Source: an uncultured Candidatus Saccharibacteria bacterium (GTDB lineage Bacteria; Patescibacteriota; Minisyncoccia; Phycocordibacterales; SBAW01). From it: a stretch of DNA of 64,000 bases. Below the pieces are notes generated by a model. It saw only the letters and a list, made by a program, of their open reading frames with translations. It made no database searches and was not told where the DNA came from. Below, in pieces: positions 7,702 to 60,693 of the stretch (position 1 is its first letter; each line of letters begins with the position of its first letter). The position numbers were made by a program, and so were the translations under genes. The DNA lies in assembly GCA_964459335.1 (NCBI GenBank), contig CAYWJX010000003.1, positions 44 through 64,043 of the forward strand, in the 5' to 3' direction.

Positions 7702-8994
7702 TTAGTAGCTGCGGAGGCGCTTGGCTTTGTCGTGGGTGCGGATTCTTTCCAACGCTTTAGCCTCTATTTGGCGGATACGCTCGCGCGTGACACCAAACTT
7801 TTTACCCACTTCCTCGAGCGTGTGGTAGATGCCGTCTTCGAGCCCGTGGCGCAGTTTCAATATCTCGCGCTCTTTTGGTGAGAGCTCGTCGAGTATCTCG
7901 CGCAATTGGTCACCCAAAATACGGCGCGACACTTCTTGGTCGGGCGCGAGGATTTTGTCATCTTTGATAAAATCGCCCAAGACCGACTTGCCGTCATCAT
8001 CATCGGAGCCAACCGGGCTCTCGAGTGAGACCGTGTCTTGGTCGATTTTTTCTATCTGATATATTTTGTCGACATCAACGCCCATCTCAAGGGCGATTTC
8101 CTCCGGCAGTGGGTCGCGGCCCAAGTCTTGCGAGAGGCGGCGCGACACTTGTTTGTACTTGGCGATTGTCTCCACCATGTGCACCGGGATGCGGATAGTG
8201 CGGCTTTGGTCGGCCAAGGCGCGGGTAATAGCTTGGCGTATCCACCACGTGGCGTAGGTCGAAAACTTGTAGCCCTTGGTGTAATCAAATTTATCAACCG
8301 CCTTAAAAAGGCCGAGGTTGCCCTCTTGGATGAGGTCGAGGAGGGTCAGGTCGGGCGAGCGGCCAACATATTTTTTTGCAATGGAGACCACAAGGCGCAG
8401 GTTGGCACGTGCAAGCAAGTTGCGTGCCTCGCCGTCGCCGTCGACAATGCGCTTGGCCAAGTCGCGCTCAGATTGAGCATTGAGGAGCGGGTACTTGCCT
8501 ATCTCGCGCAAGTACATTTGTATCGAGTCATATTGGCTGTCGGAGCGCGCATAGCCGCGCTCGGGCGCCGCGTCCTCGGCTATCTCGAGCATGCCGCCGC
8601 CCTCAAGCACATCGATGCCGGCGGTTTGGAACTTGTCGTAGAGCTCCTCCAAAAATGTTACATCGCTCTCGATGGTCGGGAAGCTTTTGAGGATTTCGTC
8701 GTAGGTGACAAAGCCGCGTTGGCGGCCGCGCGCCATCAATGCCTCTGCTTTTTTGCCTTGCTCGTCGTTCTTTTTAAATTGTTTTTCTTTTGCGGCAACA
8801 AACTTCCTCGACGCTTTAGTCGGGGTCCCGACTATACGTCGGGATTTAGGCGAGAGCTTAGCGCGCCGCTTGGCGGCTGCCGTGCGGAACTTTTTAGCTT
8901 TTGCTACAACACTTTTTGAGCGTTGGGACTTTTTCCCCGACGCCTTGGTCGGGACCCCGACCTTGCGTCGGGGCTTAGCCTTCTTTTTTGCCAT
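7702..8994 (-). CDS. rpoD: RNA polymerase sigma-70 factor RpoD with a Lys-rich N-terminal tail
   Basis: Motifs [52 protein letters not shown] and [20 protein letters not shown]. An alternative GTG start is at 9015. Confidence 0.92.
8808..8845. repeat. GC-rich nested palindrome element (family A), in frame inside rpoD
   Basis: TCGACGCTTTAGTCGGGGTCCCGACTATACGTCGGGA, with nested arms CGACG/CGTCG and GTCGGG/CCCGAC. It encodes [13 protein letters not shown]. Confidence 0.8.
8935..8973. repeat. GC-rich nested palindrome element (family A), in frame inside rpoD
   Basis: CCCCGACGCCTTGGTCGGGACCCCGACCTTGCGTCGGGG. It encodes [13 protein letters not shown]. Confidence 0.85.
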
Positions 8995-10749: not shown

Positions 10750-10823
10750 AGATACCACTAGTGTACACTCCAATATAAAACCCCGAGACTTGCGCCTCGG
10801 GGTTTTATATTTCGTTCTTTATA

Positions 10824-13800
10824 CTACGCTATTTCCTTTTCGCCCACTACTTCGGGAGAAACGGGTGCATATTTGTTGACCAATTTTTCCTTTGGCGAGC
10901 CTTTAAAGCCCGTGCCTGCCGGGATGAGCCGGCCGATGATGACGTTTTCTTTCAAGCCCTCGAGCTTGTCGACTGCGCCATAGACAGACGCTTTGATAAG
11001 CATGCGTGTCGTGTTTTGGAACGATGCCGCGGAGAGGAAGCTCGCGCGCGAGAGCGACACATCAAGAATGCCCATGATGAGCGGCTCGCCTTTTGCGGAT
11101 GCGCCGCTGTTTTCAATCATCGTATCGTTTGCAATGTTCATGTCGGATTCGCTCAACACATCGCCTACCGAGAGCTCCGTGTCGCCCACCTCTTTGATGC
11201 GCACACGGCTAAACATCTGATGCACAATGGTTTCGAGATGCTTGGTAGACACGCTTGCTCCTTGGAGCTCGTAGATTTTTACCACCTCGCTGATGATGTA
11301 GCTCTGCGTTTTTTCTTTACCGGCATAAGCAAAGAGCTCCGAGAGGTCGGCCGAGCCGTCGGTTAGGAATTGACCCTTCTCGATTTTGTCGCCCACCTTA
11401 ACGGTCGGGATGCGGCGGAAGCTTACTTCGTACTCGATTGTCTCTTTCTCTTTTTTACCTTTGCCGCGATACTCCAAATCCGGCGCTATAACGATTATTT
11501 TTTCTTTGCCTTCAACTTTTATTTCGACAACCTCGCCCGAGACGGTCGCAATAGCGGCCGGGTTGCGCGGGGCGCGGCGCTCAAAGATTTCCTCAACGCG
11601 CGGCAAGCCCTGTGTCACATCACCCTCGGCACTCGCGGCACCGCCGGCGTGCTTGATGTTCATGGTGAGCTGAGTGCCCGGCTCGCCGATTGCCTGTGCG
11701 GCAACGGTGCCCACGGCCTCGCCGATTGCAACCGGCTTCATCGTGCCCAAGTCGGAGCCGTAGCATTTGACACATACGCCGCGGCCCGCTTTACAGCTGA
11801 TTGGTGAGCGCACATACACACTTTCGATACCGCTCTCTTCGATACTCTTTGCATCGTGCTCCGTAAGCAATTGACCTTTTTTGTATGAGACATTGCCCTG
11901 CTCGATGTCCTCCGCGAGATAGCGGCCCTGGATATTTTTTGCCATAAAGGTGCCGATACCCGACGCGGACTGGCGGTACACTCTGATGCCCTCCTTGGTG
12001 CCGCACTCGTCCATCGAAACAACCACATCTTGCGCAACGTCAAAGAGACGGCGCGTGAGATATCCCGCCTTGGCGGTTGAGAGCGCGGTTGAGGCGAGCC
12101 CCGAGCGCGAGCCGTGCGTAGTGGTAAAGTAGTCAATCGGCGAAAGACCTTCCTTCATCGACTTGGTAACGGGGAGCTCGATTGTCTCGCCGGTTGGCGA
12201 TGCAATGAGACCCTTCATACCGGCCATTTGTGTCATTTGTGCAAGAGAACCGCGCGCGCCGGAGCGGAGCATGTCCTCCACCGAACCGTTTTTAGGCAAC
12301 GAAAGCGGAATGAGTTTTTCCACCTGCGACTTGGCAGCATGCCATACCTCGATGTTCATGCGATAACGCTCTTCCTCGGAGAGCAAACCCTCCTTCCAGT
12401 GCTGGATAATTTGTGCGCTCTTTAGGTCGGCGGCGTCAATGATGGCTTGTTTGCCCGGTGGGACGCGGATGTCGTCCAATGACCACGTGATGCCCGACTT
12501 GGTCACATAGCGGAAGCCGAAGTTTTTAACTTTGTCGAGAATGTCGGGGATGCGCTCGAGGCCGTAGCGACTGATGAGGTCATCAACGAGTTTAGCCATT
12601 GATTTTTTGTCGATAGCGTAGTTGATAAACGGATAGTCGCTCGGGAAGACGGTGTTAAAGAGGAGCCTGCCCACCGTGGTCTCAAAGAGCTGACCGCCAA
12701 ACTGCGCGTATTTTTCCTTCTCGCTCGGCAACACTTTTATTTTTGCCTGAAAGCCCACGTGGCCGTAGTCGTACGCGAGTATTGCGGAGTTGGGGCTAGA
12801 AAACGCCATACCTTCGCCTTGCATACCCTCGACCTCTTTGGTCATCCAATATGAACCGAGCAAGATGTCGAGGAGTTTGGTGGCAACTACCGGCTCGCCG
12901 TTGCCCGGTTTGAGGATGTTTTTAGGAGCGGCCATAATCTCGCGCGCTTCGGCCTGGGCTTCGGGAGAGAGCGGCACGTGCACGGCCATTTGGTCGCCGT
13001 CGAAGTCGGCATTAAACGCCGGACATACGAGCGGGTGGAGTTGGATAGCATTGCCTTCAATGAGTACCGGCTGGAAAGCCTGGATACCGAGGCGGTGCAG
13101 AGTTGGCGCGCGGTTGAGCATCACGTATTTGTCTTTGATAACATCCTCGAGAATTGCCCACACCTCCGGCACGCCCTCGTCGATAAGACGACCGGCACCA
13201 CGGATGTTGTAGGCAAGCTCCTTCTCCAAGAGTTTGCCGATGACAAACGGGCGGAAAAGCTCGAGTGCCATGTGCTTGGGCAAACCGCATTGGGAAAGTT
13301 TTAGTTCAGGACCGACAACGATAACCGAGCGGCCCGAGTAGTCGACGCGTTTGCCGAGCAGGTTTTGGCGGAAGAGACCGTGCTTACCCTTGAGATTGTC
13401 GGAGAGCGATTTAAGCGGGCGTGTGCGTGCTTGTGTCGTTGCCGAAAACGCCGCACCGCCGTGGCGAATAGAGTTGTCTATAAGCGCATCAATGGCTTCC
13501 TGTAAAATGCGCTTTTCGTTGCGGAGGATAACATCCGGCGCGTGTATCTCGAGTAATTTTTTGAGACGGTTGTTGCGGTTGATGACACGGCGGTAGAGGT
13601 CGTTGACGTCGGAGGTTGCGTGGCGGCCGCCTTCGAGTGCAACCATGGGGCGCAACCCCGGCGGTATAACCGGAATGCGCGTGAGGAACATCCACTCGGG
13701 GCGCACGTTGGCTTTGATCATACCGCGCAATACCGAGAGACGGCGCGAATATTTTTCGCGATTAGCGGCACTGGTCTTTTCGAGCGCAACTTCAGTCTCG

Positions 13801-16800
13801 GCGACCATATCTTTAAGATTGAGACCTTTGCAGAGGTCATAGAGCGCTTCTGCACCGATGCCGGCCTCAAACATTGCGCCATATTTAATGGCATAACGGT
13901 GATAGCGAGGCTCATCGAGTACGGAACCGACAAAAATACTTTCGATGTCGCGCTTGGCCTCGAGGTAAAGCTCCTTCATCTTATCCTTCGACTTATCGTC
14001 CTGGAGATTTTTGAGTTTGGTTTTGTACTCAGCTTCGAGCTCACCCACAATGCGCTCGCGCTCGGCCTTGTGCACCTTAGTGATGATGTAACCGGCAAAG
14101 TACACGACCTTTTCCAAATCGCCGGAGGCAATGGAGAGCACCGAGGCAAGGCGCGACGGTATCGCGCGGAGGAACCACACGTGTGCCACCGGCACAGCCA
14201 AGTCGACATGACCCATGCGCTCGCGGCGCACGATGGCGCGGGTGATTTCGACGCCGCACTTCTCGCAGATGATTCCTTTGTAACGGATGCCGCGATATTT
14301 GCCGCAGTAACACTCGTAGTCGCGCTCGGGACCAAAGATTTTTTCGTCAAAGAGAGAGTTTTTTTCCGGACGCTGGGTGCGGTAGTTGATAGTCTCAGGC
14401 TTGGTAACCTCGCCATGCGACCACTCCAAGATTTTTTCGGGGCTGGCCGGGCGGATGCGCACTGCGTCAAAGTCGGATGCCTCGGCACCCGGCGTTTTGC
14501 GGCTGTTTACAACCGACGAACCGCTCTTCATCAGCTCAACATCGAGCGCCAAGCCGCGGAGCGTGTGGAGAAGCACGTTAAAGGATGCCGGCGCGTAGTG
14601 CTGGGTGATGCGCTCGCCGCGCACGATTGAGTCAAACGCCGCCGAGCGTCCCATAATGTCGTCAGACTTTATCGTGAGCATCTCACGGAGCGTGTATGCC
14701 GCGCCGTAACCTAAGAGTGCCCACACTTCCATTTCGCCAAAGCGCTGACCACCGCCTTGTGCTTTGCCGCCCAAGGGCTGTTGCGTAATGAGCGAGTACG
14801 GACCGATAGAACGCATGTGGATTTTGTCCTCCACCATGTGATGAAGCTTGAGGATATACATGTAGCCGACTGAAATGTCTTGCTCAAACTTCTCTCCCGT
14901 GCGGCCGTCGTACAGCGGCATTTTGCCGTTTTCGTTAAAGCCTGCTTTTTTGAGCTCGGCGCGGATCTCCTCCTCTGTTGCGCCGACAAACGGCGGACAG
15001 ATTGCTTGATAGTTGAGCGTGTTAGCGGCAAGACCGAGATGCAACTCCAAAATTTGTCCGAGGTTCATGCGGCTCGGCACGCCCAAGGGAGTCAGTATCA
15101 CATCAACCGGGCGACCGTCTTCCATATAGGGCATGTCTTCCTCCGGCAAGATGCGCGAGATAACACCTTTGTTGCCGTGACGACCGGCGAGCTTGTCGCC
15201 CACCGACACTTTGCGCAACTGCGCCACCTCAATGTGGATGCGCTTGATGATGCCCGAGTCGAGATGATGCCCCGCTTCGCGCGAAAATACTTTTACGCTG
15301 ATGATGCGACCGCGCTTGCCGTTTTCCATGCGCAAGCTCGAGTCTTTAACATCACGCGCTTTGTCGCCAAAGATACTGCGGAGCAAACGCTCCTCGGGAG
15401 TGAGTTGAGTCTCGCCTTTTGGCGTAATTTTTCCTACTAAAATGTCGCCGGGGCGCACCTCGGAGCCCACTTGCACCACGCCGTCCTCGTCGAGATTGCG
15501 GAGTTTAGCTTCGGAAACGTTGGGGATGTCGTGCGTTGTTTCCTCGGGCCCCAGCTTGGTATCGCGCACGTTGCACACAAACTCCTCGATGTGTACCGAA
15601 GAAAACTTGGAGTCTTTAACAAGGCGCTCGCTGATGATGATGGCGTCTTCGTAGTTGGCACCGCTCCAGCACATAAACGCAACGAGTGCGTTTTGGCCGA
15701 GCGCAAGCTGGCCATGGTCGGACGATGACATGTCGGCGAGCAAATCGCCTTTTTTAACTTTTGTACCTGGCGAAACTGCGGGGCGCTGATGAAGCGCGGT
15801 AAAGCCGTTGGTGCGTACAAAGTTTACAAGCGCATACTCAACATCTTTGCCTTTTTCGTTTTTCACTACAATACGCTTGCCATCGGCGTGGGTTACAACG
15901 CCTGCCTCGGCGGCATAAATAAGACGGCCGGTGTCATGCGCTGCGCGCTCCTCGATGCCGGTAGCTACCAAAGGCGCCTCGGGCGCAATGACCGGCGTTG
16001 CCTGCTTTTGCATGTTGGAGCCCATGAGACTGCGGTTGGCATCGTCGTGCTCGAGAAACGGGATCATCGTCGTCGCGATAGAAAACGGCTGCTCGGGAGA
16101 CACGTCCATATAGTTAACCTCTTCACGAGGCACCTGCACCGGCTTGCCGTTTAAACGCGCGTCGGCAATATCCTCGAGGATATGGCCGTTGTCGTCTACT
16201 TGCGTTGCACCGTGCGCGATAATCTGCTTCTCTTCCTCGGCAGCGTTAAGATAATGAATTTCTTTTGTGACAACTCCCTTCTCTACTTTTACGTACGGAG
16301 TTTCGATCATGCCAAACGCGTTGATGCGCGCATATTGTGCGAGACGCAAAATAAGGCCGATGTTGGGGCCTTCGGGAGTGTGTATCGGGCAGAGCCTGCC
16401 GTAGTGGCTGGGGTGCACGTCGCGCACTTCAAAACCGGCACGCTCGCGTGTTAAGCCGCCGGGGCCCAGCGCCGAGAGCGTCCGCAAGTGCTCGAGCTCT
16501 TCAAGCGCGTTCGTTTGCTGCATAAACTGCGAGAGCTGGTTGGTGGTAAAAAATTCTTTGATGCGCGCTTGGAGCGGGCGCGGGTTTACAAACTGCTGTG
16601 GCAGTGAAGCGTCGGCATCAATCGTCGACATCCGGTCTTGGATATTGCGCTTCATGTGCGTGAGGCCAACGCGCAAACGTTGTGCAAGCATCTCGCCTAC
16701 ATAACGCACGCGGCGGCTCCCAAGATGGTCAATGTTATCCTCCATTGCGTCCGGATCGTGCTCGAGCTCGAGTACTTTGTTGAGCACGATCACGAGGTCA

Positions 16801-17669
16801 TCAAGGGAAAGCGTTTTGCGGCCAAGCTCTTTCTCATCGAGTGAGCCGTCAAAGCGCTGATTAAAGCGGAAGCGACCCACGCGCGAGAGGTCGTAGCGGT
16901 CCGCGCTAAAAATCGAGTCAATATATTCGCGCGCGTTTGCCGCTGTTGCCAAATCACCGTCGCGCAAGCGCTTGTGTATCTCAACATAGGCATCCTCGGC
17001 GGTTTTGGCCGGGTCTTTTTCTATGGCGCCCTCAATCCAGTGTTTGCCAAGCGGGTTTGAAGCAAAAAGCGATTTAAGGTCGCTGTCATAGCGCGCACCC
17101 AAAATGCGGAGCAACGAGGTCGCCGGGAACTTGCGCTTGCGGTCGATGCGCACTTGGAGCTCGCCCTGTGCATCGGCCTCAATCTCAATCCATGCGCCGC
17201 GTTGCGGGATTATTTTTGCGCCAAAGTGTATTTTGCCTTTGACTTCGTCGGATGTAAAAAACACGCCGTAGGAGCGTGCGAGCTGGGGTACGATAACGCG
17301 CTCGACTCCGTTGATGATAAACGTGCCGTGGCCCGTCATCAAAGGAAAATCGGCAAGGAAAATTTCCTGCTCCTGCTCGGAGCCCGTCGTTTTGTTTTTG
17401 AGCTTGACGATTGCGTGGAGCGGGATGTCGAGCGACATCTTTTGCTCTTTGGCATAGTGCTCGTCGTACTTTGCCTCCCCCAGCTCTATCTTGGAAAACT
17501 CGAGGTCAAATTTTTTGCCCGAGTAGTCGTTGATGGGCGTAAACTCTTTGAAAGCTTCTTTGACTCCCTCCTCCAGCAGGAGTTTGTAGGAGTCGACTTG
17601 CGCGGCGACCAAATTGGGCGTCTCAACGCGTGCGGGGCGATAACGGGCGAAGTATTTTTTTTCACGCAT
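10824..17669 (-). CDS. rpoBC: Fused RNA polymerase beta-beta' subunit (RpoB-RpoC in one 2281-aa ORF)
   Basis: The beta portion (about 17669-14530) carries beta hallmarks such as [13 protein letters not shown] and ends ...[12 protein letters not shown] linker [19 protein letters not shown] follows. The beta' portion (about 14474-10824) begins [22 protein letters not shown] and includes [22 protein letters not shown] and other beta' hallmarks. There is no stop between the two parts. Confidence 0.93.
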
Positions 17670-18336: not shown

Positions 18337-19062
18337 TTATTTAGGATTGCTGCGTTTTTTGTTTTTCCACGCATCCAAGAGCTTGTGATTGCCCGAGAGC
18401 AATACTTTTGGCACGCGATATTTTTTACCTTTATATGTGAGAATTTCTGGGCGCGTGTACATCTCGTGGCTTGCCACCCGCCCTTCCTCGAGCGACTCAA
18501 GCTTGCCGAGCACACCCGGTATCTGCCGCGCCGTTGCGTCGATAATCGCAAGCGCCGGCACCTCGCCGCCGGTCAAAATGTAGGGGCCAACCGAGACCTC
18601 CTCGGCCTTTAACACTTTTTTAGCACGCGCATCTAACCCCTCGTAGCGGCCGCAAACAATAATCACCTCCGCATATTTTTTGCTCAAATTTTTTGCGTAA
18701 GCATTGGTCAAAGGCTTCCCGCCCGCCGCTGTTATTAAAACTTTTGTTTTGGTGGATTGATATATCAATCCACTCTTTTTTTTCTTAGAAATTTTTTTTA
18801 GGATACTCTCAACTGCGCGGATGACCGGCTCGGCTTGGATAATCATACCGGGGCCGCCGCCATACGGCCGCTCGTCAATTTTTTTGTATGACCACTCGCT
18901 TGCCCCGTGGCCGTTTTTCGGCTTTACGGGGCCTGCTACAAAATCGCGCAATTGGTAGCTTTGTATGCTTAAAATCTTCTCGCGCTGTGCACGCCCCAAG
19001 ATAGAAGCTTGTGCATAAGCATCTATAACCTCGGGGAAAAGGGTAACAACGTGAAATTTCAT
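18337..19062 (-). CDS. trmD: tRNA (guanine37-N1)-methyltransferase TrmD
   Basis: Motifs MKFHVVTLFPEVI, YGGGPGMI and CGRYEGLDAR. Confidence 0.9.
   Translation of the reverse strand: MKFHVVTLFPEVIDAYAQASILGRAQREKILSIQSYQLRDFVAGPVKPKNGHGASEWSYKKIDERPYGGGPGMIIQAEPVIRAVESILKKISKKKKSGLIYQSTKTKVLITAAGGKPLTNAYAKNLSKKYAEVIIVCGRYEGLDARAKKVLKAEEVSVGPYILTGGEVPALAIIDATARQIPGVLGKLESLEEGRVASHEMYTRPEILTYKGKKYRVPKVLLSGNHKLLDAWKNKKRSNPK
18752..18773. repeat. AT-rich perfect palindrome (family B), in frame inside trmD
   Basis: GTGGATTGATATATCAATCCAC (22 bp). It encodes SGLIYQST within a Lys-rich insertion of TrmD. Confidence 0.85.
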
Positions 19063-20006: not shown

Positions 20007-20050
20007 GCCGACGTGTTAACAGTCGGCCCCCCGACCAAAGCGTCGGGGCC
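20007..20050. repeat. GC-rich nested palindrome element (family A), intergenic copy
   Basis: GGCCGACGTGTTAACAGTCGGCCCCCCGACCAAAGCGTCGGGGCC, located between the rpsP stop and the KH gene start. Confidence 0.8.
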
Positions 20051-20539: not shown

Positions 20540-22543
20540 ATGCCTCGGAGACAGAAGGCGGATCACCCAAAGACCGCTAAAAAGCATATAACCGGCATCG
20601 TCCAGATAACCCGCAAAGGCGTGGGATATTTGCCCTTCCCGCTTGCTTTGGGAGATAAAAAAGGGCTCGAAGATATCGAAATAGATACGCTAAACCTGGG
20701 AGGCGCGCTCAACGGCGACACCGTGGAGGCAGAGCTTGTCGGTGTGCATCCCAGGGCCAGGGGCAAGGTAGTAAAAATAGTTTCGCGCGCTAAGAGCGAG
20801 TTTGTTGCAACTCTGCGAAAAACTCAGGGTGCACTCGTCGCTATAGCCGATGATCAAAAGTTTTACCGCCCGATAACTTTGCAAGGCAGTGTTAACTACG
20901 TTGAGGGCGAGAAGGTTGTGGTAAAACTCATCTCGTTTGATGCCGGCAAGGAGCCGGTGGGTACTATCATCAACCATCTTGGCAAAGCCGGCGAGCACCG
21001 CACGGAGATGAACGCCATCGTGCTCGAAAACGGATTTTCGACAACCTTCCCTGCCGCAGTGGAGGCCGAGGCACAAAAAATTGAAGACACGCATGCGGCA
21101 ACTATTGCGCGGGAGATACCAAAGCGTTTGGATTATCGCGATAGTGTCACTTTTACCATCGACCCGGCCGACGCCAAAGATTTTGACGACGCGCTCTCGG
21201 TTGAAGAGCTGCCCAACGGTGAGTATGAAATCGGTGTACATATCGCCGACGCAACCTATTTTTGTGTACCGGGCACAGCCATCGACGACGAAGCGCAAAA
21301 GCGCGGCACGAGCGTGTATTTGGTAGACACAACGATACCGATGCTCCCCCCGGAACTTAGCGGCAACGTATGCTCACTCAAAGAGGGCGTCGAGCGGCTC
21401 GCGTTTTCGGCAATATTCCGCATCGATAACAAAGGCAATGTGCTCGACAGGAAATTTGCAAAAACAGTTATCCGCTCCAATAAACGTTTTACCTACGAGG
21501 AGGCACAAAAAGTTTTGGATGAGCAACGCGGCCCGTATATAAAGGAGCTCACTGTTTTAAAAAACCTCTCACGCATCATGCGCAAAGAGCGAGAACGTAA
21601 GGGCGCTATCGATTTTGGCGACAACGAAGTGCGCTTTGTACTCGACGAGCGTGGCGTGCCGCTCAAGGTGGTGCGCAAAGAGCGCATCGAGACCAACCTT
21701 TTAATCGAAGAGTTTATGCTCCTCGCCAACCGCGAGGTGTCGCTCTTTGTATCCAAACTCGCCGAGCGCGTGCCCGAAAAAAAGTATACCTTTTTGTATC
21801 GCATCCATGACGAGCCTAAAGAAGATAGGATTATGGAGCTCACCACCTTTGTGCGCGCCATGGGATACGACTTTGCAAATAAATCCCGACGCTCTGAGGT
21901 CGGGACCCCGACCAAGGCGTCGGGGAATAAGCCAACAGCCAAAGACATCCAACATTTGCTTAAACAAATTGAGGGCAAACCCGAGGAGCATTTGATACGC
22001 ACCGCCACACTGCGTAGCATGGCCAAAGCAATTTATTCAACAAAAAACATTGGGCACTTTGGGCTTTCATTTGAGTACTACACGCACTTTACCTCGCCTA
22101 TTCGCCGGTATCCCGACATGCTCGCGCATCGTATCCTTGCATCTCATTTAAGCGGCAATCCGATAACACGCACCGAGATGAGCAACTTGGAGCGTATGTG
22201 CATCACCGCAAGCGAGCAAGAGGCAAACGCGGTTGCCGCCGAGCGCGAGAGCATCCGATATAAACAGGTTGAGTATATGCTCCCCAAAATTGGCAAAACA
22301 TTTGATGCGGTGATATCCGGCGTTACCGACTGGGGCTTGTATGTGGAGGAGAAAGAGAGCGCCGCCGAGGGCCTCGTGCGTATGCGCACGATTGGCGATG
22401 ATTTTTATAACTATGTGGCCAAAGACTACGCACTGGTGGGCCAGCGTACGAAAAAAAAATACGCACTCGGAGACCGAGTGCGCGTGAAATTGATTGCTGC
22501 CGACCTTAATGCGCGGCAGTTGGATTTTGAGCTTGTCTCGTAG
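20540..22543 (+). CDS. rnr: Ribonuclease R (RNB family exoribonuclease)
   Basis: RNB motifs FTIDPADAKDFDDALS, YLVDTTIPMLP and HFGLSFEYYTHFTSPIRRYPD, plus a C-terminal S1 domain. Confidence 0.9.
   Translation: MPRRQKADHPKTAKKHITGIVQITRKGVGYLPFPLALGDKKGLEDIEIDTLNLGGALNGDTVEAELVGVHPRARGKVVKIVSRAKSEFVATLRKTQGALVAIADDQKFYRPITLQGSVNYVEGEKVVVKLISFDAGKEPVGTIINHLGKAGEHRTEMNAIVLENGFSTTFPAAVEAEAQKIEDTHAATIAREIPKRLDYRDSVTFTIDPADAKDFDDALSVEELPNGEYEIGVHIADATYFCVPGTAIDDEAQKRGTSVYLVDTTIPMLPPELSGNVCSLKEGVERLAFSAIFRIDNKGNVLDRKFAKTVIRSNKRFTYEEAQKVLDEQRGPYIKELTVLKNLSRIMRKERERKGAIDFGDNEVRFVLDERGVPLKVVRKERIETNLLIEEFMLLANREVSLFVSKLAERVPEKKYTFLYRIHDEPKEDRIMELTTFVRAMGYDFANKSRRSEVGTPTKASGNKPTAKDIQHLLKQIEGKPEEHLIRTATLRSMAKAIYSTKNIGHFGLSFEYYTHFTSPIRRYPDMLAHRILASHLSGNPITRTEMSNLERMCITASEQEANAVAAERESIRYKQVEYMLPKIGKTFDAVISGVTDWGLYVEEKESAAEGLVRMRTIGDDFYNYVAKDYALVGQRTKKKYALGDRVRVKLIAADLNARQLDFELVS
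21885..21925. repeat. GC-rich nested palindrome element (family A), in frame inside rnr
   Basis: CCCGACGCTCTGAGGTCGGGACCCCGACCAAGGCGTCGGGG. It encodes [14 protein letters not shown]. Confidence 0.85.
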
Positions 22544-22796: not shown

Positions 22797-25049
22797 CTAT
22801 TTAGCAACCGCCAATGCTTCTTCAAATTTGACGCTCAAGAGTTTGGAAACACCGTCGGAGCCCATCGTGACACCGTAGAGGACGCCTGCGCGGGACATAG
22901 TTTCGCGGTTGTGGGTAATCAAAATAAGCTGAGATTTTTTGGAAAGGTTCTCTATCATGTCGCCATAGCGGCGCGAGTTGGCCTCGTCGAGCGCGGCGTC
23001 GGTTTCGTCGAGTATCAAAAACGGCGGCGGGTTAACCTGGCTCATCGCAAAAATAAGCGCAATCGAGATAAGCGCGCGCTCGCCGCCCGAGAGCATATGG
23101 ATGCCTTTAACGCGTTTGTGCGGAATGTTAACGGTAATCTCTATTCCCTCCTCTACCTCCACATCGGCATCGTCTTCAAGGTCGGTCCTTGGAGAGCCCT
23201 GAGCTAAGGACCGACCTTGGCGGTAACTTCGCTCCTCGACAATCGCAAGCGAGGCGCCGCCGCCGCCAAACATGAGTTTAAAAAACTCGTCAAACTCTTT
23301 GTTTATTTTTGCAACACCTTCGGCAAAACGGCTCTCGAGCGTTTTGGTGAGCTCCTCTATGAGCTCTCGCAACTTGGCGGCGCTTGCCTCCAAGTCGGCG
23401 AGCTCACGCGCCAAAAATTGTTCGCGCTCTGTTGTCTCTTTGTACTCTTTGAGTGTCTCCGCCGAGTTGCCGGCGCCGAGCTCTTCAAGCCTTATCTTGC
23501 CGCGCTCGAGTTTGCGACGGCGCTCCTCCTGCGCCTCGCGCGGCTCCTCGGCAATCTCTTTATCGGAGAGTTCTTGCCCGTGCGCGCCAAGTACCGTGAA
23601 GCTGCCATACTCGGAGACGCCGCGCCCAATAAGCGCTCCGGCCTCGCCGAGCTCGCGGGTAAAGTTTTCTTTCAACCTTGCGAGAGCATCGGCGCGGGCA
23701 CGCATACCGGCAAGCGTGACCTCGAGCTCGCTCCGTTTTGCCATCGCTTGAAAGAGCTCACGCTCCGCCTCGCGCGAGGCGTCTTTTTTACTTTCGATTT
23801 TTTTGCGCAAAGCATCAACCTCTGCGCGCGCCTTAGCCTCTTTGTGTGCAAGCTCTGCAAGCTCACGCTCCAGCGCCGTTTTTTTGGTGGCAAGCTCATC
23901 GGCGCTTTGGCGCACATGCGCCTCGGGCCGTAAGATTTGCAGGCGACGCATAAACTCGGTGGCTAACACCACAAGCGCATTGAGTTTGGCTTTGAGCTTT
24001 TCGACTTCACCAAGAGCAAGTGTTTCGTTTAATTCGTTTAACACCCTAGTGGCAAACTCCTCGGCTTGCGCCGCGGGCACAGTGCCAGAGAGGGTTTGCG
24101 TGATGCGCGCCGACGCCGCAAGCTCACCCTCGATGCGTCCAAGCTCTCGTGATATTTCCTCGCGCCTGCCGCGGAGTGTCCGGCCTTCCTCCTCAAGCCG
24201 CATCAGCTCGCGCACCGGCTCCTCCTCGCCGTGCTTTTGATTGAGCTCGTGACGCAGATGCAAAATAGACGCTTCTAACTGCGCATGCTCGCGCCTTGGT
24301 TCTTCTTCGGCACTCTTAATTTCTGCCTCTTCAACCTTAATAAACACACTCTCGCGTTTTAGATATTCGGCATAATGCAGGGCGACCTCGTTTTGCAGGC
24401 GCGAGCCTTCCTCGATTTTTTTAACCTGCGCGGTCAAAAACTTTACATGCGGCGCAAGCTCGCGCCGCAGACTCTCAATCTCGCGGACATTCTCGGCAGT
24501 CTTTTCCATTTTGCGCTCGGCTTCCTCGCGCTTATACAAAAATGCCGTGAGGCCGAGCGCGTCCTCTATCATCTCGCGACGCTCTTTAATGCTTGCGGTG
24601 AGCACGCGGTCGGCCTCGCCTTGCGAAATAATATGATGTCCCGATGCGCCGATGTTGGCTTGGCTCAAGAGCTCGGCAATGTCGCGCAAGCGCACGATAG
24701 AGCCGTTGAGTAAATAATCGTTGGCGCCGTCGCGATACACCACGCGCTCGATGGCCACCTCGTCAAAGTCGAGCGTAAGCTCCCTGTCGCTGTTATCAAA
24801 AATAAGTTTTACCGAAGCGCGGCCCGCGCGTGGTGAGGAACTTGAACCGTTCCATATCAAATCCTCGCCGCGCTTGCCGCGCATACTCTTCATCGATTGC
24901 TCGCCCAAAACAAAGCGGAAGCTCTCGGCAATGTTGCTTTTGCCGGAGCCGTTAGGGCCCACCACCGAGGTAATGGCCGAGCCAAAGACAAGCTGAGTCT
25001 TTTTGGCAAAAGACTTAAACCCCGCGAGTTCAATACTCTTTAACCGCAT
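22797..25049 (-). CDS. smc: SMC-family chromosome segregation ATPase, short form (about 750 aa) with no recognisable hinge
   Basis: N-terminal MRLKSIELAGFKSF...GPNGSGKSNIAESFRFVLGEQS, then C-terminal LSGGERALISIALIFAM and FLILDETDAALD, with coiled-coil-like sequence in between. The start at 25049 lies 11 nt after the rnc stop. Confidence 0.85.
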   Translation of the reverse strand: MRLKSIELAGFKSFAKKTQLVFGSAITSVVGPNGSGKSNIAESFRFVLGEQSMKSMRGKRGEDLIWNGSSSSPRAGRASVKLIFDNSDRELTLDFDEVAIERVVYRDGANDYLLNGSIVRLRDIAELLSQANIGASGHHIISQGEADRVLTASIKERREMIEDALGLTAFLYKREEAERKMEKTAENVREIESLRRELAPHVKFLTAQVKKIEEGSRLQNEVALHYAEYLKRESVFIKVEEAEIKSAEEEPRREHAQLEASILHLRHELNQKHGEEEPVRELMRLEEEGRTLRGRREEISRELGRIEGELAASARITQTLSGTVPAAQAEEFATRVLNELNETLALGEVEKLKAKLNALVVLATEFMRRLQILRPEAHVRQSADELATKKTALERELAELAHKEAKARAEVDALRKKIESKKDASREAERELFQAMAKRSELEVTLAGMRARADALARLKENFTRELGEAGALIGRGVSEYGSFTVLGAHGQELSDKEIAEEPREAQEERRRKLERGKIRLEELGAGNSAETLKEYKETTEREQFLARELADLEASAAKLRELIEELTKTLESRFAEGVAKINKEFDEFFKLMFGGGGASLAIVEERSYRQGRSLAQGSPRTDLEDDADVEVEEGIEITVNIPHKRVKGIHMLSGGERALISIALIFAMSQVNPPPFLILDETDAALDEANSRRYGDMIENLSKKSQLILITHNRETMSRAGVLYGVTMGSDGVSKLLSVKFEEALAVAK
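23177..23219. repeat. Long palindrome in frame inside smc (related GGTCGG/CCGACC core)
   Basis: CAAGGTCGGTCCTT-GGAGAGCCCTGAGCT-AAGGACCGACCTTG, with 14-bp perfect arms. It encodes part of RQGRSLAQGSPRTDLED. Confidence 0.8.
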
Positions 25050-36864: not shown

Positions 36865-36947
36865 TGTGATCTCCTTCTTGAGACAGGTGCATCGCTCTCT
36901 CGTGAGAGCTCGTTTATATATCAGTGTTGATATACAAGCGAACAATA

Positions 36948-36991
36948 ACGAAAAAATTTGTCCCGGCGGAGCGCTTTATGCGCGCTCCGCC
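36948..36991 (-). terminator. Terminator module T2
   Basis: On the minus strand, GGCGGAGCGC-GCATAAA-GCGCTCCGCC is followed by GGGACAAATTTTTTCGTTATT. Confidence 0.7.
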
Positions 36992-37006
36992 GAAACGAGT
37001 CGGTGT

Positions 37007-37309
37007 TCAATCGCACCAGGCGTTGCCGGTGCCCGGGCCGCCCGTGGGCTGTCCCGTTGTAGCGTCGCAACGGAACTGGTTAGGTGTACCCGGCGGATGC
37101 TCGGTAGTGAGGCGTATAGGAGCTTCGGGTCGGCCAACTCGTCGCTGCGTCTGAGGATATCCCTCGATGACCGCTGGAGCCCCGCCAACATATGCCTGCG
37201 GACCGGATTCCACCATTCCCCTATTGGGGAACATTCCAGCGGAACCGCAACCGCCGAGGGCAGAAGCCAAAGCCGCGACCGCCGTAGCCAACAGAATCTT
37301 CTTCAACAT
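37007..37309 (-). CDS. Lipoprotein (100 aa) with a C-terminal C-x(n)-GxNAWC motif
   Basis: Lipobox MLKKILLATAVAALASALGGC. The protein ends ...EHPPGTPNQFRCDATTGQPTGGPGTGNAWCD. Confidence 0.7.
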   Translation of the reverse strand: MLKKILLATAVAALASALGGCGSAGMFPNRGMVESGPQAYVGGAPAVIEGYPQTQRRVGRPEAPIRLTTEHPPGTPNQFRCDATTGQPTGGPGTGNAWCD

Positions 37310-37397: not shown

Positions 37398-37460
37398 GTC
37401 CCCTTCTTTTTCACCTTAATCTAGATGCCAACCTTCTGTTAGATAAGCATTTAGAAAATA

Positions 37461-37504
37461 ACGAAAAAAATTGTCCCGACGGAGCGCTTTGTGTGCGCTC
37501 CGTC
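37461..37504 (-). terminator. Terminator module T3 (homologous to T2)
   Basis: On the minus strand, GACGGAGCGC-ACACAAA-GCGCTCCGTC is followed by GGGACAATTTTTTTCGTTATT. Confidence 0.7.
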
Positions 37505-37518
37505 GAAACGAGTGGGTG

Positions 37519-38445
37519 TTAGCCGCTACACCAGGCGTTGGTGCCTCGCTCATCGAGAGGCTGCGCATCGGGTCCGCTGTAAACACAACGATGAGATTTA
37601 CCTGGGAGAGGATGCTCTATACGGACGTGCTTTGGGGTGCCGGCGCGCCCATTGATTTTAGGCTTTGGCATCACTTCTCCAACTGGAGGTGGTGCCGCGG
37701 CTGCCACAACCGGAGCTGGCGGCGGAGCAACTGCCGCAGGTGGCGCCGGCGGAGGTTGAACCGCCACTGTCGGCGTAGGTGTCGGCGGAGCCGGAGGGTT
37801 CACCTTCGCCGCCGCTTGAGCTGCAGTGAGATCGGCCTGAGCTTTGTCGAGCTCAGACTTCAAAGCTGCAACCTCGCTAGCATCGGCCGGATTGGCCTTA
37901 GCCACAGCAAGCTGTGCCTCTGCCTTGCTTTGCTCTTCCTTTGCCTTTGCCGCTGCGGTTTCAGCCGTCCCCTTGTCCGCCTTGACCTGTTCGAGTTGGG
38001 TTTTGAGGGACATAACCTCACTGTTGGTGGAGGAATTCCACCAACCATCAATTTTGTGGGTAACGTACACACTACCGCCGACAGCAACCAAAAGTATGAC
38101 GGCCACTGCCACACGGCGCGCCCAAAGCCCAATCAAATCGCGACGTGTTTTGGGAGCCGGCGGCGCAACTGGCGCAGCCGGGGCCGAAGCAACAGGCGGA
38201 GGCGTTGCAGTAGCGGGTGCTGCTGCAGGTGCCGGAGCAACAGGCGGCGGAGGCGGTGGTGCAGCAACGGCAGGCGCCGTAGCCGGGACAACCGGAGGAA
38301 TTGTTCCTACCGGGTCGGGCTTTTCCGCAAAAGCCCCGAGTTTCCCCGTACGAAGATTGCACACTCTCCAGGACCCCAAATCATCTAGCGCAACCCATTG
38401 ACCTTTGGGATTACGAAACACGTCTCTCACAGGAGCTTTTGCCAT
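37519..38445 (-). CDS. Single-pass membrane protein with Pro/Ala-rich linkers, an extracellular coiled coil and a C-terminal NAWC motif
   Basis: An N-terminal about 45-aa domain, a PA-rich tract, TM helix VAVAVILLVAVGGSVYV, a coiled coil (KTQLEQVKADKG...), a second P-rich tract, and the ending ...EHPLPGKSHRCVYSGPDAQPLDERGTNAWCSG. Confidence 0.7.
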   Translation of the reverse strand: MAKAPVRDVFRNPKGQWVALDDLGSWRVCNLRTGKLGAFAEKPDPVGTIPPVVPATAPAVAAPPPPPPVAPAPAAAPATATPPPVASAPAAPVAPPAPKTRRDLIGLWARRVAVAVILLVAVGGSVYVTHKIDGWWNSSTNSEVMSLKTQLEQVKADKGTAETAAAKAKEEQSKAEAQLAVAKANPADASEVAALKSELDKAQADLTAAQAAAKVNPPAPPTPTPTVAVQPPPAPPAAVAPPPAPVVAAAAPPPVGEVMPKPKINGRAGTPKHVRIEHPLPGKSHRCVYSGPDAQPLDERGTNAWCSG

Positions 38446-39282: not shown

Positions 39283-42602
<3,320 letters not shown>

Positions 42603-54787: not shown

Positions 54788-54803
54788 TTTACATAAAAAC
54801 TCC

Positions 54804-54823
54804 TGGCTTGATATATCAAGCCA
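54804..54823. repeat. AT-rich perfect palindrome (family B variant)
   Basis: TGGCTTGATATATCAAGCCA, 17 nt after the gmk stop. Confidence 0.85.
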
Positions 54824-54886
54824 TTTCTACTATGCTCTTCCTGTTCCACAATCTTGTTGTGTGCGTGGGTCAACACCACTCGCTTG

Positions 54887-54908
54887 ATGGATTGATATAT
54901 CAATCCAT
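54887..54908. repeat. AT-rich perfect palindrome (family B)
   Basis: ATGGATTGATATATCAATCCAT, ending 39 nt upstream of the 54948 ATG. Confidence 0.85.
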
Positions 54909-55364: not shown

Positions 55365-55399
55365 CCCGAGTTGTCAGGCCGAAGTTGTCCATTGTAAAG

Positions 55400-55419
55400 T
55401 GGATTGATATATCAATCCA
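55400..55419. repeat. AT-rich perfect palindrome (family B)
   Basis: TGGATTGATATATCAATCCA, 36 nt after the 55364 stop. Confidence 0.85.
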
Positions 55420-59906: not shown

Positions 59907-59927
59907 CCGTGAGGTTTAGCCTCACGG
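59907..59927 (+). repeat. RAYT-2 hairpin, copy 1
   Basis: CCGTGAGGTTTAGCCTCACGG followed by AAGTG. Confidence 0.85.
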
Positions 59928-59933
59928 AAGTGT

Positions 59934-60584
59934 TTACTGTTGGGTTGAAAGCCAAAAATCGATATGGTCATCCACTTCATGTGCCTGCAAAAAATAATTA
60001 GGAAACTTCGTAGGGTTGGTTATAATGTGTTTTTTTGAAAGATATTCTCCAATGCTTGAGTAAGGATATTCGCGTATGAATGTACGCAGTGCTTTGAAGT
60101 CCGCACGGCCACACTGCTTCCACGACGGGTTGGCAAGTTTTGCGGGATTAAGATGAATATATGAAAAAAGATATTTTACATACTTGTCATGGTCGGCATG
60201 CTCGGCCTTAAATGTCCCTTGAAAGAGTGCCCCACTGCGGCGATGTTTTTCGTTAAAAAACATCGTATACGCGGTTTGAACTCTTTGCATATATTTTGAA
60301 ATGCCACCCTTAACAAGCGGAGTTGCAAACAAATGGATATGATTTGGCATGAGGCAATATGCACCTACAGCAACGAGTGGGTCTCCTCTTTCTACTGAAA
60401 AAATTGCGTTTCCTGTGTGCTCATCAAGAAGGTCTGCTGGGCGGATATTTTTTTGAGTATTGAGCAAATATAAATACGCAATAAATCGGCGGTATTCGGA
60501 AGACTCGGTAAAGACAACTCGCTTATCAACTCCGCGATTATACAGATGATAATATTCCCCCTCAACAAAGGTAATGCGTCTCAT
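59934..60584 (-). CDS. RAYT-like / IS200-family Y1 HUH transposase (paralogue of 27967-28608)
   Basis: YHLYNRGVDKR, HUH motif CLMPNHIHLFA, RSGALFQGTFK and SYIHLNPAK. The start MRRITFVEG at 60584 was chosen; the ORF extends to 60635 through a hairpin. Confidence 0.8.
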   Translation of the reverse strand: MRRITFVEGEYYHLYNRGVDKRVVFTESSEYRRFIAYLYLLNTQKNIRPADLLDEHTGNAIFSVERGDPLVAVGAYCLMPNHIHLFATPLVKGGISKYMQRVQTAYTMFFNEKHRRSGALFQGTFKAEHADHDKYVKYLFSYIHLNPAKLANPSWKQCGRADFKALRTFIREYPYSSIGEYLSKKHIITNPTKFPNYFLQAHEVDDHIDFWLSTQQ

Positions 60585-60603: not shown

Positions 60604-60622
60604 CCGTGAGGTTTAGCCTCAC
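60604..60622 (+). repeat. RAYT-2 hairpin, copy 2 (imperfect)
   Basis: CCGTGAGGTTTAGCCTCAC(A). Confidence 0.8.
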
Positions 60623-60642
60623 AGTTGGACGTCAAAGGTATA

Positions 60643-60663
60643 TCGTGAGGTTTAGCCTCACGG
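60643..60663 (+). repeat. RAYT-2 hairpin, copy 3
   Basis: TCGTGAGGTTTAGCCTCACGG followed by AAGTG. Confidence 0.85.
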
Positions 60664-60693
60664 AAGTGCTTTATGGGGTTATTTGCCGAGGTT

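Follow-up and report, generated by a model that had tools for sequence, protein, structure and literature searches.

A dispersed double-hairpin repeat carried in frame by housekeeping genes of Patescibacteria and found beside a small GIY-YIG nuclease gene

The 64-kb stretch of contig CAYWJX010000003.1 analysed here (the window) contains the genes for the sigma-70 factor (rpoD), RNase R (rnr) and the gyrase subunit GyrB, and with them exactly five copies of a short GC-rich double-hairpin element. Two copies lie in rpoD, one in rnr and one in gyrB, and the fifth is intergenic, 7 nt past the stop codon of rpsP (20056) and 64 nt before the start of a KH-domain gene (19943). The genome behind the window belongs with the Patescibacteria, near Candidatus Adlerbacteria, as judged by 85% RpoD identity to locus L079 (L-numbers denote loci from other genomes, P-numbers RNase R relatives from the database). 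Both rpoD copies are found within a lysine-rich tail, N-terminal to region 1.1, which begins at residue 79 according to Pfam; the probable start of the gene is the ATG at 8994. The gyrB copy falls between the Toprim and C-terminal domains assigned by Pfam. In all four copies located within open reading frames (ORFs) the frame is kept and the element is read as V-G-(V/T/A)-P-T, as the initial annotation of this DNA had claimed, and the rnr copy has an identical stretch of 21 nt, CCCGACCAAGGCGTCGGGGAA, in common with rpoD copy 1. Coordinates are collected in Table 1, with each element bounded by its outermost paired bases.

All five copies share the motif order CCGAC...GTCGG-NNNN-CCGAC...GTCGG, and clusters of alternating CCGAC and GTCGG in the window are confined to these five sites. 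Core patterns are matched 3–4 times in the window (four times for GTCGGGN{1,3}CCCGAC) and the full element pattern matches four elements, compared with no match to either in shuffled sequence (100 dinucleotide-preserving shuffles for the core). The initial annotation had proposed a covariance search for further copies. A covariance model made from the copies of other genomes, run exhaustively across the whole window with filters off, recovered the five copies with E-values of 3e-12 to 4e-6 and no others, the next match having an E-value of 0.7. Each copy also folds much better than its shuffles (z −3.2 to −6.4). The number of copies and their positions, as first annotated from the letters of the sequence, are thus borne out by the pattern search, the shuffles and the model.

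The fold of the element differs from the one first proposed, an inner hairpin nested within an outer hairpin. With the hairpins placed side by side, pairing across 35 short-loop copies is 99.2% complete and both partners have changed in 41 cells, a level of covariation reached by none of 500 shuffles. In the nested fold the variable outer pairs are broken in 12–14 of the 35 copies, and the score falls below that of the shuffles. Because the outer two bases covary inside each hairpin, independently of the other hairpin, the unit consists of two 7-bp hairpins that abut directly, each of the form NN-CCGAC-loop-GTCGG-N'N'. A nested fold can be drawn for copies in the window since both stems there happen to be nearly alike; the intergenic copy has two stems that differ from each other, and for this reason the side-by-side fold alone is predicted for it. 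The inner 5 bp (CCGAC/GTCGG) are constant whereas the outer 2 bp are free yet paired, and an unpaired base is usual beside the stem, a G after the first CCGAC and a C before the last GTCGG. Both the invariant core and the unpaired G and C are in part a product of the search pattern, and variants such as CCGAT/ATCGG are present among copies found by the covariance model alone. Loops range from 5–6 nt to more than 20 nt and may carry extension stems, and entire hairpins are often nested within the loops of other hairpins. As the second hairpin is of the reverse-complement type of the first, the element has two-fold symmetry and looks the same on both strands, to which the model gives equal scores. 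Single hairpins also appear to be modular: AGCCGAC-GATTCT-GTCGGCT is found in two L066 elements in opposite orientation and with different partners.

Alignment of orthologues, which the initial annotation had suggested, shows that the insert is present in some relatives and absent from others at the same sites. In RpoD, the site of copy 1 is filled in the window, in L079 and in L031 (81% identical), with a compensatory stem change (CCCCGAC/GTCGGGG versus TCCCGAC/GTCGGGA) that replaces P with S and V with T. Copy 2 is present in the window only and is missing from the RpoD tails of L079, L031, L023 and L027, the last two of which have neither copy. At the position of copy 1 the rpoD tail of L023, a metagenome-assembled genome (MAG) of Zambryskibacteria, has a single hairpin, CCCCTCGAG-AATA-CTCGGGG (L023:4780-4830), read as KKPLENTRGK, perhaps a variant of the element's unit or a decayed form of it. 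At the GyrB linker the element is present in the window, in L038 (75.6% identical) and in L021 (69%), again with compensatory changes, here in the extension stems (CTCCGGC/GCCGGAG versus CTCTGGC/GCCAGAG; N to K and G to R). The site is empty in L033 (58%), which has an unrelated linker. Among the 30 closest database relatives of RNase R the element is present only in P0001 (95% identical) and P0004 (72%); P0002 and P0003 (both 76% identical) and the remaining relatives (about 25) have an empty site.

The rnr site gives a direct comparison of filled and empty DNA. With a slash marking the insertion point, the empty site in L199 reads AAT AAA/AAG AAG CCG; the filled site is AAT AAA, 42 nt, AAT AAG CCA in the window and, as a variant, AAG AAA, 39 nt, AAG TAT in L200. 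From these sequences the inserted DNA is exactly the paired unit, which points to precise insertion, and at this single site there is no target-site duplication beyond an ambiguous run of A. The insertion places are permissive ones, as had been expected of surface loops or tails: an N-terminal tail in RpoD, a surface loop in RNase R, where the insert corresponds to a gap in an RNB-domain loop on alignment to B. subtilis RNase R (8cdu), and an inter-domain linker in GyrB with no counterpart in M. tuberculosis GyrB (2zjt).

Three of the window copies encode a near-identical peptide in three proteins, and it could be argued that a conserved basic peptide, RRxVGxPTKASG, is selected at the protein level with the palindrome as a by-product of codon choice. 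This is very improbable. The same DNA unit is found between genes as well as in each of the three frames, loop lengths vary among copies, the stem positions covary as base pairs and in doing so alter residues, and the peptide is absent from most orthologues. The conserved peptide is contradicted by the covariation, the intergenic copies and the orthologues alike, and the element is a dispersed palindromic repeat family. The compensatory changes in RpoD and GyrB, each of which alters the protein, suggest that the constraint acts on the nucleic acid rather than on the peptide.

A scan for the element pattern that covered 185,579 species genomes gave at least 118 loci. Among the matches listed, about 85 loci belong to Patescibacteria-type MAGs of many named lineages, a further 12 or so, from Omnitrophota, Chitinophagaceae and a handful of other MAGs, are well formed, and about 21 lie in high-GC genomes, have unpaired flanks and can be explained by chance. 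As judged from these sequences, the family is spread through the Patescibacteria and reaches a few other phyla. Considering the 109 pattern-selected copies among the matches listed, 27 (about a quarter) are in long ORFs, 18 lie no more than 200 nt ahead of the 5' end of a tRNA, 4 just downstream of a tRNA, 47 in other intergenic DNA, and 13 are ambiguous. GyrB and sigma-70 recur among the ORF hosts. Other Patescibacteria have the element in frame in proteins of replication and DNA handling (PolA at two different sites, DnaG, PIF1 helicases and RNase HII), in proteins of translation (histidyl-tRNA synthetase and class I and class II aminoacyl-tRNA synthetases) and in SecA, RNase J, a P-type ATPase, the FtsZ tail and an aldolase. 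The dispersed copies show a preference for T-Y-A-R on both flanks (52, 70, 58 and 78% per position). A search of 2.9 million viral contigs gave 7 pattern matches and only distant relatives of the GIY-YIG protein described below, on which carriage by phages was rejected.

Copies within genes differ from those outside them in length and frame. The unit length is divisible by three in 20 of the 27 long-ORF copies as against 25 of 65 intergenic ones (Fisher p 0.0027), and the V-G-x-P-T frame is used at the junction in 19 of 28 ORF copies (p 2e-4). This bias is the pattern that would be expected from purifying selection on translated insertions, and it argues, indirectly, against removal of the element from the mRNA.

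Other copies lie near tRNA genes. Three near-identical copies in L033 pointed to an ORF of 86 amino acids with a GIY-YIG domain (Pfam PF01541, E 5e-14), and by tblastn this ORF lies directly behind the element in 8 loci, among the matches listed, that had been fetched for the element alone. In a reverse test, 80 metagenome loci were chosen solely for the GIY-YIG protein, 78 of which had upstream sequence; in about 69 of the 78 an element ends no more than 100 nt upstream of the start codon, mostly at 10–45 nt. The ORF is followed by a tRNA on the same strand in all 74 loci with room for one, within 40 nt in 67, and 56 of these 67 close tRNAs are tRNA-Arg, then His, Thr, Val and Asp. Over the three-part modules of element, GIY-YIG ORF and tRNA, the tRNAs are mostly tRNA-Arg, with His, Thr, Val, Asp, Lys and Met also represented. 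On clustering of neighbouring genes, GIY-YIG is the sole gene family that recurs beside the elements. The protein is nearest to UPF0213 (PDB 1zg2, E 3e-10) and more weakly related to SLX1 (E 3e-3), a structure-specific nuclease. Within the window tblastn found no GIY-YIG nuclease gene.

The tRNA-linked copies have a consistent anatomy. Each begins with a duplicate of the first 11–15 nt of the tRNA that follows and places the element in the D-loop, which for tRNA-Arg is exactly between ...TTCAA and CGGATAGAA; after the element come a few more D-arm bases, a spacer of 5–25 nt and the intact tRNA. In several loci an intact tRNA-Arg(GCG) is followed by another tRNA-Arg, without a 5' acceptor strand and with the element in its D-loop; this suggests that the nuclease gene and a replacement tRNA were integrated at an element-bearing D-arm. 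Versions of the arrangement without the nuclease are present in other genomes. That functional tRNAs might themselves carry the element was considered and rejected, as in silico deletion followed by ARAGORN gave only artefacts and fragments beside intact tRNAs. The Chitinophagaceae element L054 is situated differently, inside a duplicated 3' fragment of tRNA-Glu (T-loop region and terminator) and not a 5' fragment. Three copies are found 24–100 nt upstream of 16S or 23S rRNA. In one of these loci, L032, the 16S gene itself carries an insertion of about 200 nt, since model positions 1–581 span 777 nt.

Positions ahead of stable RNA genes raise the possibility that the element is a structure of use to the host and is kept by selection, either as an RNA involved in the processing or stability of mRNA or of tRNA and rRNA leaders, or as cruciform DNA bound by a protein, the ORF copies being the same signal where the protein tolerates it. 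The 18 copies upstream of tRNAs and those before 16S and 23S rRNA would fit such a role, as would the maintenance of orthologous ORF hairpins by compensatory changes at a cost in amino acids. The identity of the CCGAC/GTCGG core across very distant lineages points the same way, but less strongly, as the search pattern itself selects in part for this core. The two-fold symmetry and the equal scores on both strands speak against a strand-specific RNA signal, and selection on one RNA strand was rejected, as 182 nuclease-linked hairpins, read on the sense strand, have G.T and A.C pairs in similar numbers (24 and 18; p 0.44). No Rfam family matches the element: in the window only a tRNA reached the gathering score, and two of the copies gave nothing with E below 0.5. 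An intrinsic terminator was likewise rejected, no window copy being followed by the T run that completes the canonical terminator at 10772–10811 (A run, hairpin, T run). Moreover, the same sites are empty in close relatives, and nothing there has visibly taken the place of the element. A host-useful structure is on balance rather unlikely, and the lack of an Rfam match and a T run, the symmetry and the absence of a G.T excess favour an entity at the level of DNA.

The preferred reading, which is probably correct, is that the element is a miniature insertional repeat, mobile and comparable to the palindromic repeats discussed below, that is translated where tolerated and is possibly mobilized by the GIY-YIG nuclease. 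The element would move as DNA, as is inferred because its hairpins, the lack of a duplication and insertion at a short motif resemble repetitive extragenic palindromic sequences (REPs) and derivatives of IS200/IS605. A copy landing in an ORF would survive only with the frame kept and in a tolerant spot, and would then be transcribed and translated as 13–19 extra residues. That mobility or maintenance of the element depends on the 86-aa UPF0213/SLX1-type nuclease may be put forward tentatively, at a little short of an even chance; if the nuclease does mobilize the element, the window copies would be orphan, non-autonomous ones.

Several observations weigh against an insertional repeat. No transposition event was caught in these sequences, the five window copies all differ from one another, and neither a nuclease nor a transposase gene is present in the window. 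The link to GIY-YIG is one of position only, and the duplication of a tRNA 5' fragment appears to fit no known GIY-YIG mechanism. The old orthologous copies in RpoD and GyrB retain perfect hairpins through compensatory changes, which would be unexpected of decaying selfish DNA in the absence of conversion or hairpin-templated repair; they could be due to structural selection, to conversion among copies or to mutation templated by the hairpin. At rnr, a single old insertion followed by repeated precise loss fits equally well as repeated insertion, because a 72%-identical relative is filled, with the 39-nt variant, whereas 76%-identical relatives are empty.

The initial annotation compared the element with the Rickettsia palindromic elements (RPEs). 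Much of the likeness holds, for both are dispersed palindromes found in frame in housekeeping genes, adding a short peptide at tolerant positions, present or absent among relatives, and hosted by bacteria with reduced genomes; in-frame insertion in open ORFs is seen in the four window copies and in 27 others among the matches listed. The size and consensus do not carry over. RPEs are roughly 100–150 bp and are not known outside Rickettsia, whereas the element described here is 39–56 bp, has another consensus with a CCGAC core, is superphylum-wide and is linked to tRNA and GIY-YIG genes. RPE-4 and RPE-6 have been classed as CGTC REPs (PMC3733652).

REPs are similarly short GC-rich hairpins, mostly inverted dimers, many of them just after genes and some in genes for replication and repair (PMC3733652). 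The element shares the GACG/CGTC signature with them, and CGTC REPs are also without a known transposase. CGTC REPs have a stem of 8–9 bp starting with two A/T pairs, a loop of 4–5 nt and a CCA-like tail (PMC3733652), whereas the element has a 7-bp stem starting with Y-C/G-R, longer loops, no CCA tail and no spacer between units. The unpaired foot tag of CGTC REPs is also missing, the CGTC of the element consisting of an unpaired C and of a GTC that is paired where the stem meets the loop. The foot tetranucleotide of GTAG REPs, GTAG/CTAC, is missing in the 109 copies, where the T-Y-A-R flank is followed by Y-C-CCGAC. A further likeness is to the palindrome-associated transposable elements derived from IS200/IS605, which move by peel and paste and have end hairpins, no detectable duplication and a short adjacent preference. 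IS200/IS605-type elements have unlike left and right ends recognized on one strand and need a Y1 HUH transposase, TnpA. The present element is instead symmetric, its T-Y-A-R bias is two-sided and amounts to only 52–78% per position, and no TnpA was seen.

On these likenesses the element might be a REP or an IS200/IS605 derivative, mobilized by a Y1 HUH transposase (TnpA, or a REP-associated tyrosine transposase, RAYT) encoded elsewhere in the genome, with the GIY-YIG gene as a passenger or a target near tRNAs. Hairpin ends, a short motif adjacent to the insertion and the lack of a target duplication are hallmarks of IS608 and REP/RAYT transposition through single-stranded hairpins; the element shows hairpin ends, a T-Y-A-R bias at its flanks and, at the rnr site, no detectable duplication. 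Intragenic REPs, including ones in replication genes, are documented (PMC3733652). Set against this are the missing GTAG/CTAC foot and the neighbouring genes, in which GIY-YIG and not a Y1 transposase is the sole recurrent family, as opposed to the RAYT gene linked to REPs. A tblastn search of 1.25 Mb with approximate IS200 TnpA and RAYT (YafM) queries gave no match, which is a weak test. Mobilization by a Y1 transposase is considered improbable. Nor is the target-site duplication by which miniature inverted-repeat transposable elements are recognized seen at the single filled and empty site compared in rnr.

The double-hairpin elements and GC clusters of mitochondria (Allomyces, yeasts, sponges) are a close parallel in form, with GC-rich double or clustered hairpins in small genomes. 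They invade intergenic DNA, variable regions of rRNA and, in frame, coding sequence (PMC4478555, PMC2800124). They differ in belonging to eukaryotic organelles and have no sequence in common with the element, nor any verified link to tRNA D-loops or GIY-YIG genes.

For the three-part module, a close parallel in gene content is with the free-standing GIY-YIG homing endonuclease genes that lie beside conserved genes, for example the seg genes in the tRNA region of phage T4. A small GIY-YIG catalytic ORF beside a conserved gene is found at the related loci, where the conserved genes are those for tRNAs, though not in the window, and as with homing genes, versions without the nuclease occur elsewhere. 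The module differs in having an 86-aa protein that is a catalytic domain only, of UPF0213/SLX1 rather than I-TevI type, and a double hairpin ahead of the ORF inside a duplicated tRNA 5' fragment; its hairpins also disperse alone. We know of no description of any of these traits for homing endonucleases.

A more speculative extension of the preferred reading, and one that is doubtful at present, is that these loci represent a new class of mobile element in which a minimal, structure-specific GIY-YIG nuclease of UPF0213/SLX1 type uses a symmetric, cruciform-capable double hairpin as both substrate and vehicle. The autonomous form would invade tRNA D-loops, bringing or restoring an intact tRNA, and the hairpin module would spread alone, seeding in-frame peptides in essential proteins across the Patescibacteria and beyond. 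The literature searched contains no description of the element for Patescibacteria, in keeping with the initial annotation, nor of the GIY-YIG/tRNA arrangement. Papers on tRNA introns and rRNA insertions of Patescibacteria do not describe the element; one reports GIY-YIG ORFs and short uncharacterized insertions in rRNA genes of these bacteria. Short unexplained insertions have been noted in their stable RNA genes (PMC11270868), of which the element is a possible source.

Going by its sequence and distribution, the element has the look of a bacterial selfish DNA of a kind not yet described. Patescibacteria genomes are among the smallest and most streamlined in bacteria, and despite this streamlining the repeat would add residues to sigma-70, gyrase, RNase R, Pol I, SecA, FtsZ and tRNA synthetases. 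This would be a second, independent case of the phenomenon described in Rickettsia, in which selfish palindromes give rise to new peptide segments, here extending over a superphylum. Copies are picked out cleanly by the covariance model, and the element may serve as a simple marker for annotating odd protein insertions in Patescibacteria. In addition, the association of element, GIY-YIG gene and tRNA offers a candidate for the missing enzyme of hairpin repeats without a transposase, such as the CGTC REPs.

Table 1. Positions of the double-hairpin element, its host genes in the window and related loci in other genomes
Feature	Position	Strand	Length (nt)	Covariance-model E	Details
rpoD (sigma-70)	7702-8994	-			Pfam regions 1.1, 1.2, 2, 3, 4; ORF
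rpoD copy 1	8935-8973	gene on -	39	2.9e-12	CCCCGAC/GTCGGGA, loop GCCTTG, then CCCCGAC/GTCGGGG, loop CTTGC; 13 residues encoded, RpoD residues about 8-20
rpoD copy 2	8806-8844		39	4e-11	Slightly decayed: first arm CCTCGAC (+ strand), GTCGAGG on gene strand; 13 residues encoded, RpoD residues about 51-63
Intergenic copy	20007-20049		43	3e-10	GGCCGAC/GTCGGCC, loop GTGTTAACA, then CCCCGAC/GTCGGGG, loop CAAAGC
rnr (RNase R)	20540-22543	+			Pfam RNB, CSD2, S1; copy inside RNB domain
rnr copy	21884-21925	read on +	42		TCCCGAC/GTCGGGA, loop GCTCTGAG, then CCCCGAC/GTCGGGG, loop CAAGGC; 14 residues encoded
gyrB	40437-42563	-			Pfam HATPase_c, DNA_gyraseB, Toprim, DNA_gyraseB_C
gyrB copy	40659-40714	read on -	56	3e-6	Extension stems on both hairpins, + strand loops GCTCCGGCGTTGCCGGAG and CTCTTCGAGC; 18 residues encoded, between PPLYK and QRYKGLGEM
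Three-part module (element, GIY-YIG ORF, tRNA)	L033:2039-2436; L040, L084, L086, L093, L114, L028, L068, L119-L198				
Second, truncated tRNA-Arg	L187:2745-3052; L189:1060-1300; L149, L152, L158, L174				Behind nuclease gene and intact tRNA
rRNA-leader elements	L022:713-762; L032:778-824, 951-995; L043:6669-6714				Upstream of rRNA 5' ends
Copies outside Patescibacteria	L054:6440-6660; also L067, L098, L059, L057				Well-formed; L054 is a Chitinophagaceae MAG
Modular or nested hairpins	L066:883-931; L066:3107-3152; upstream regions of L157, L160, L181, L198				

Two further candidates were tried and rejected. The hexamer CCCGAC is not that of a DNA uptake sequence, as outside the five elements it is seen 23 times against 19 expected. 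A second in-frame repeat containing GCTCAGGGC (gyrB N-terminus, smc and transketolase) is not enriched, and one of its matches is a conserved transketolase motif.

The window has several other features. RpoB and RpoC are fused in a single ORF of 2281 amino acids (10824-17669, minus strand). Between the rpoBC stop and dnaG, the terminator-like hairpin at 10772-10811 consists of a 16-bp inverted repeat without mismatches, AATATAAAACCCCGAG/CTCGGGGTTTTATATT, and of A and T runs that make it canonical in both directions; given this hairpin, the true start of dnaG probably lies downstream of the listed TTG (10773). In smc (23177-23219, minus strand) two perfectly matched 14-bp arms, CAAGGTCGGTCCTT/AAGGACCGACCTTG, separated by a loop of 15 nt, form an in-frame inverted repeat that encodes the peptide QGRSLAQGSPRTDL; its GTCGG/CCGAC order is opposite to that of the double-hairpin element. 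The N-terminal part of gyrB (42310-42350, minus strand) includes a hairpin-capable CCTGCCC...GGGCAGG stretch encoding 12 residues of the ATPase domain, possibly a further short insertion that keeps the frame. An AT-rich palindrome of 20 bp, TGGATTGATATATCAATCCA, is present in four copies (18749-18772, 54800-54823, 54884-54907 and 55396-55419) and could be an operator or promoter-associated site. The hairpin CGTGAGGTTTAGCCTCACGG occurs three times (59908-59935, 60605-60632 and 60644-60671), and a 64-nt repeat with a GGAGCGC/GCGCTCC hairpin twice, 513 nt apart (36944-37007 and 37457-37520). Finally, three tandem paralogous genes are found at 60706-62109, at a spacing of 660–684 nt.

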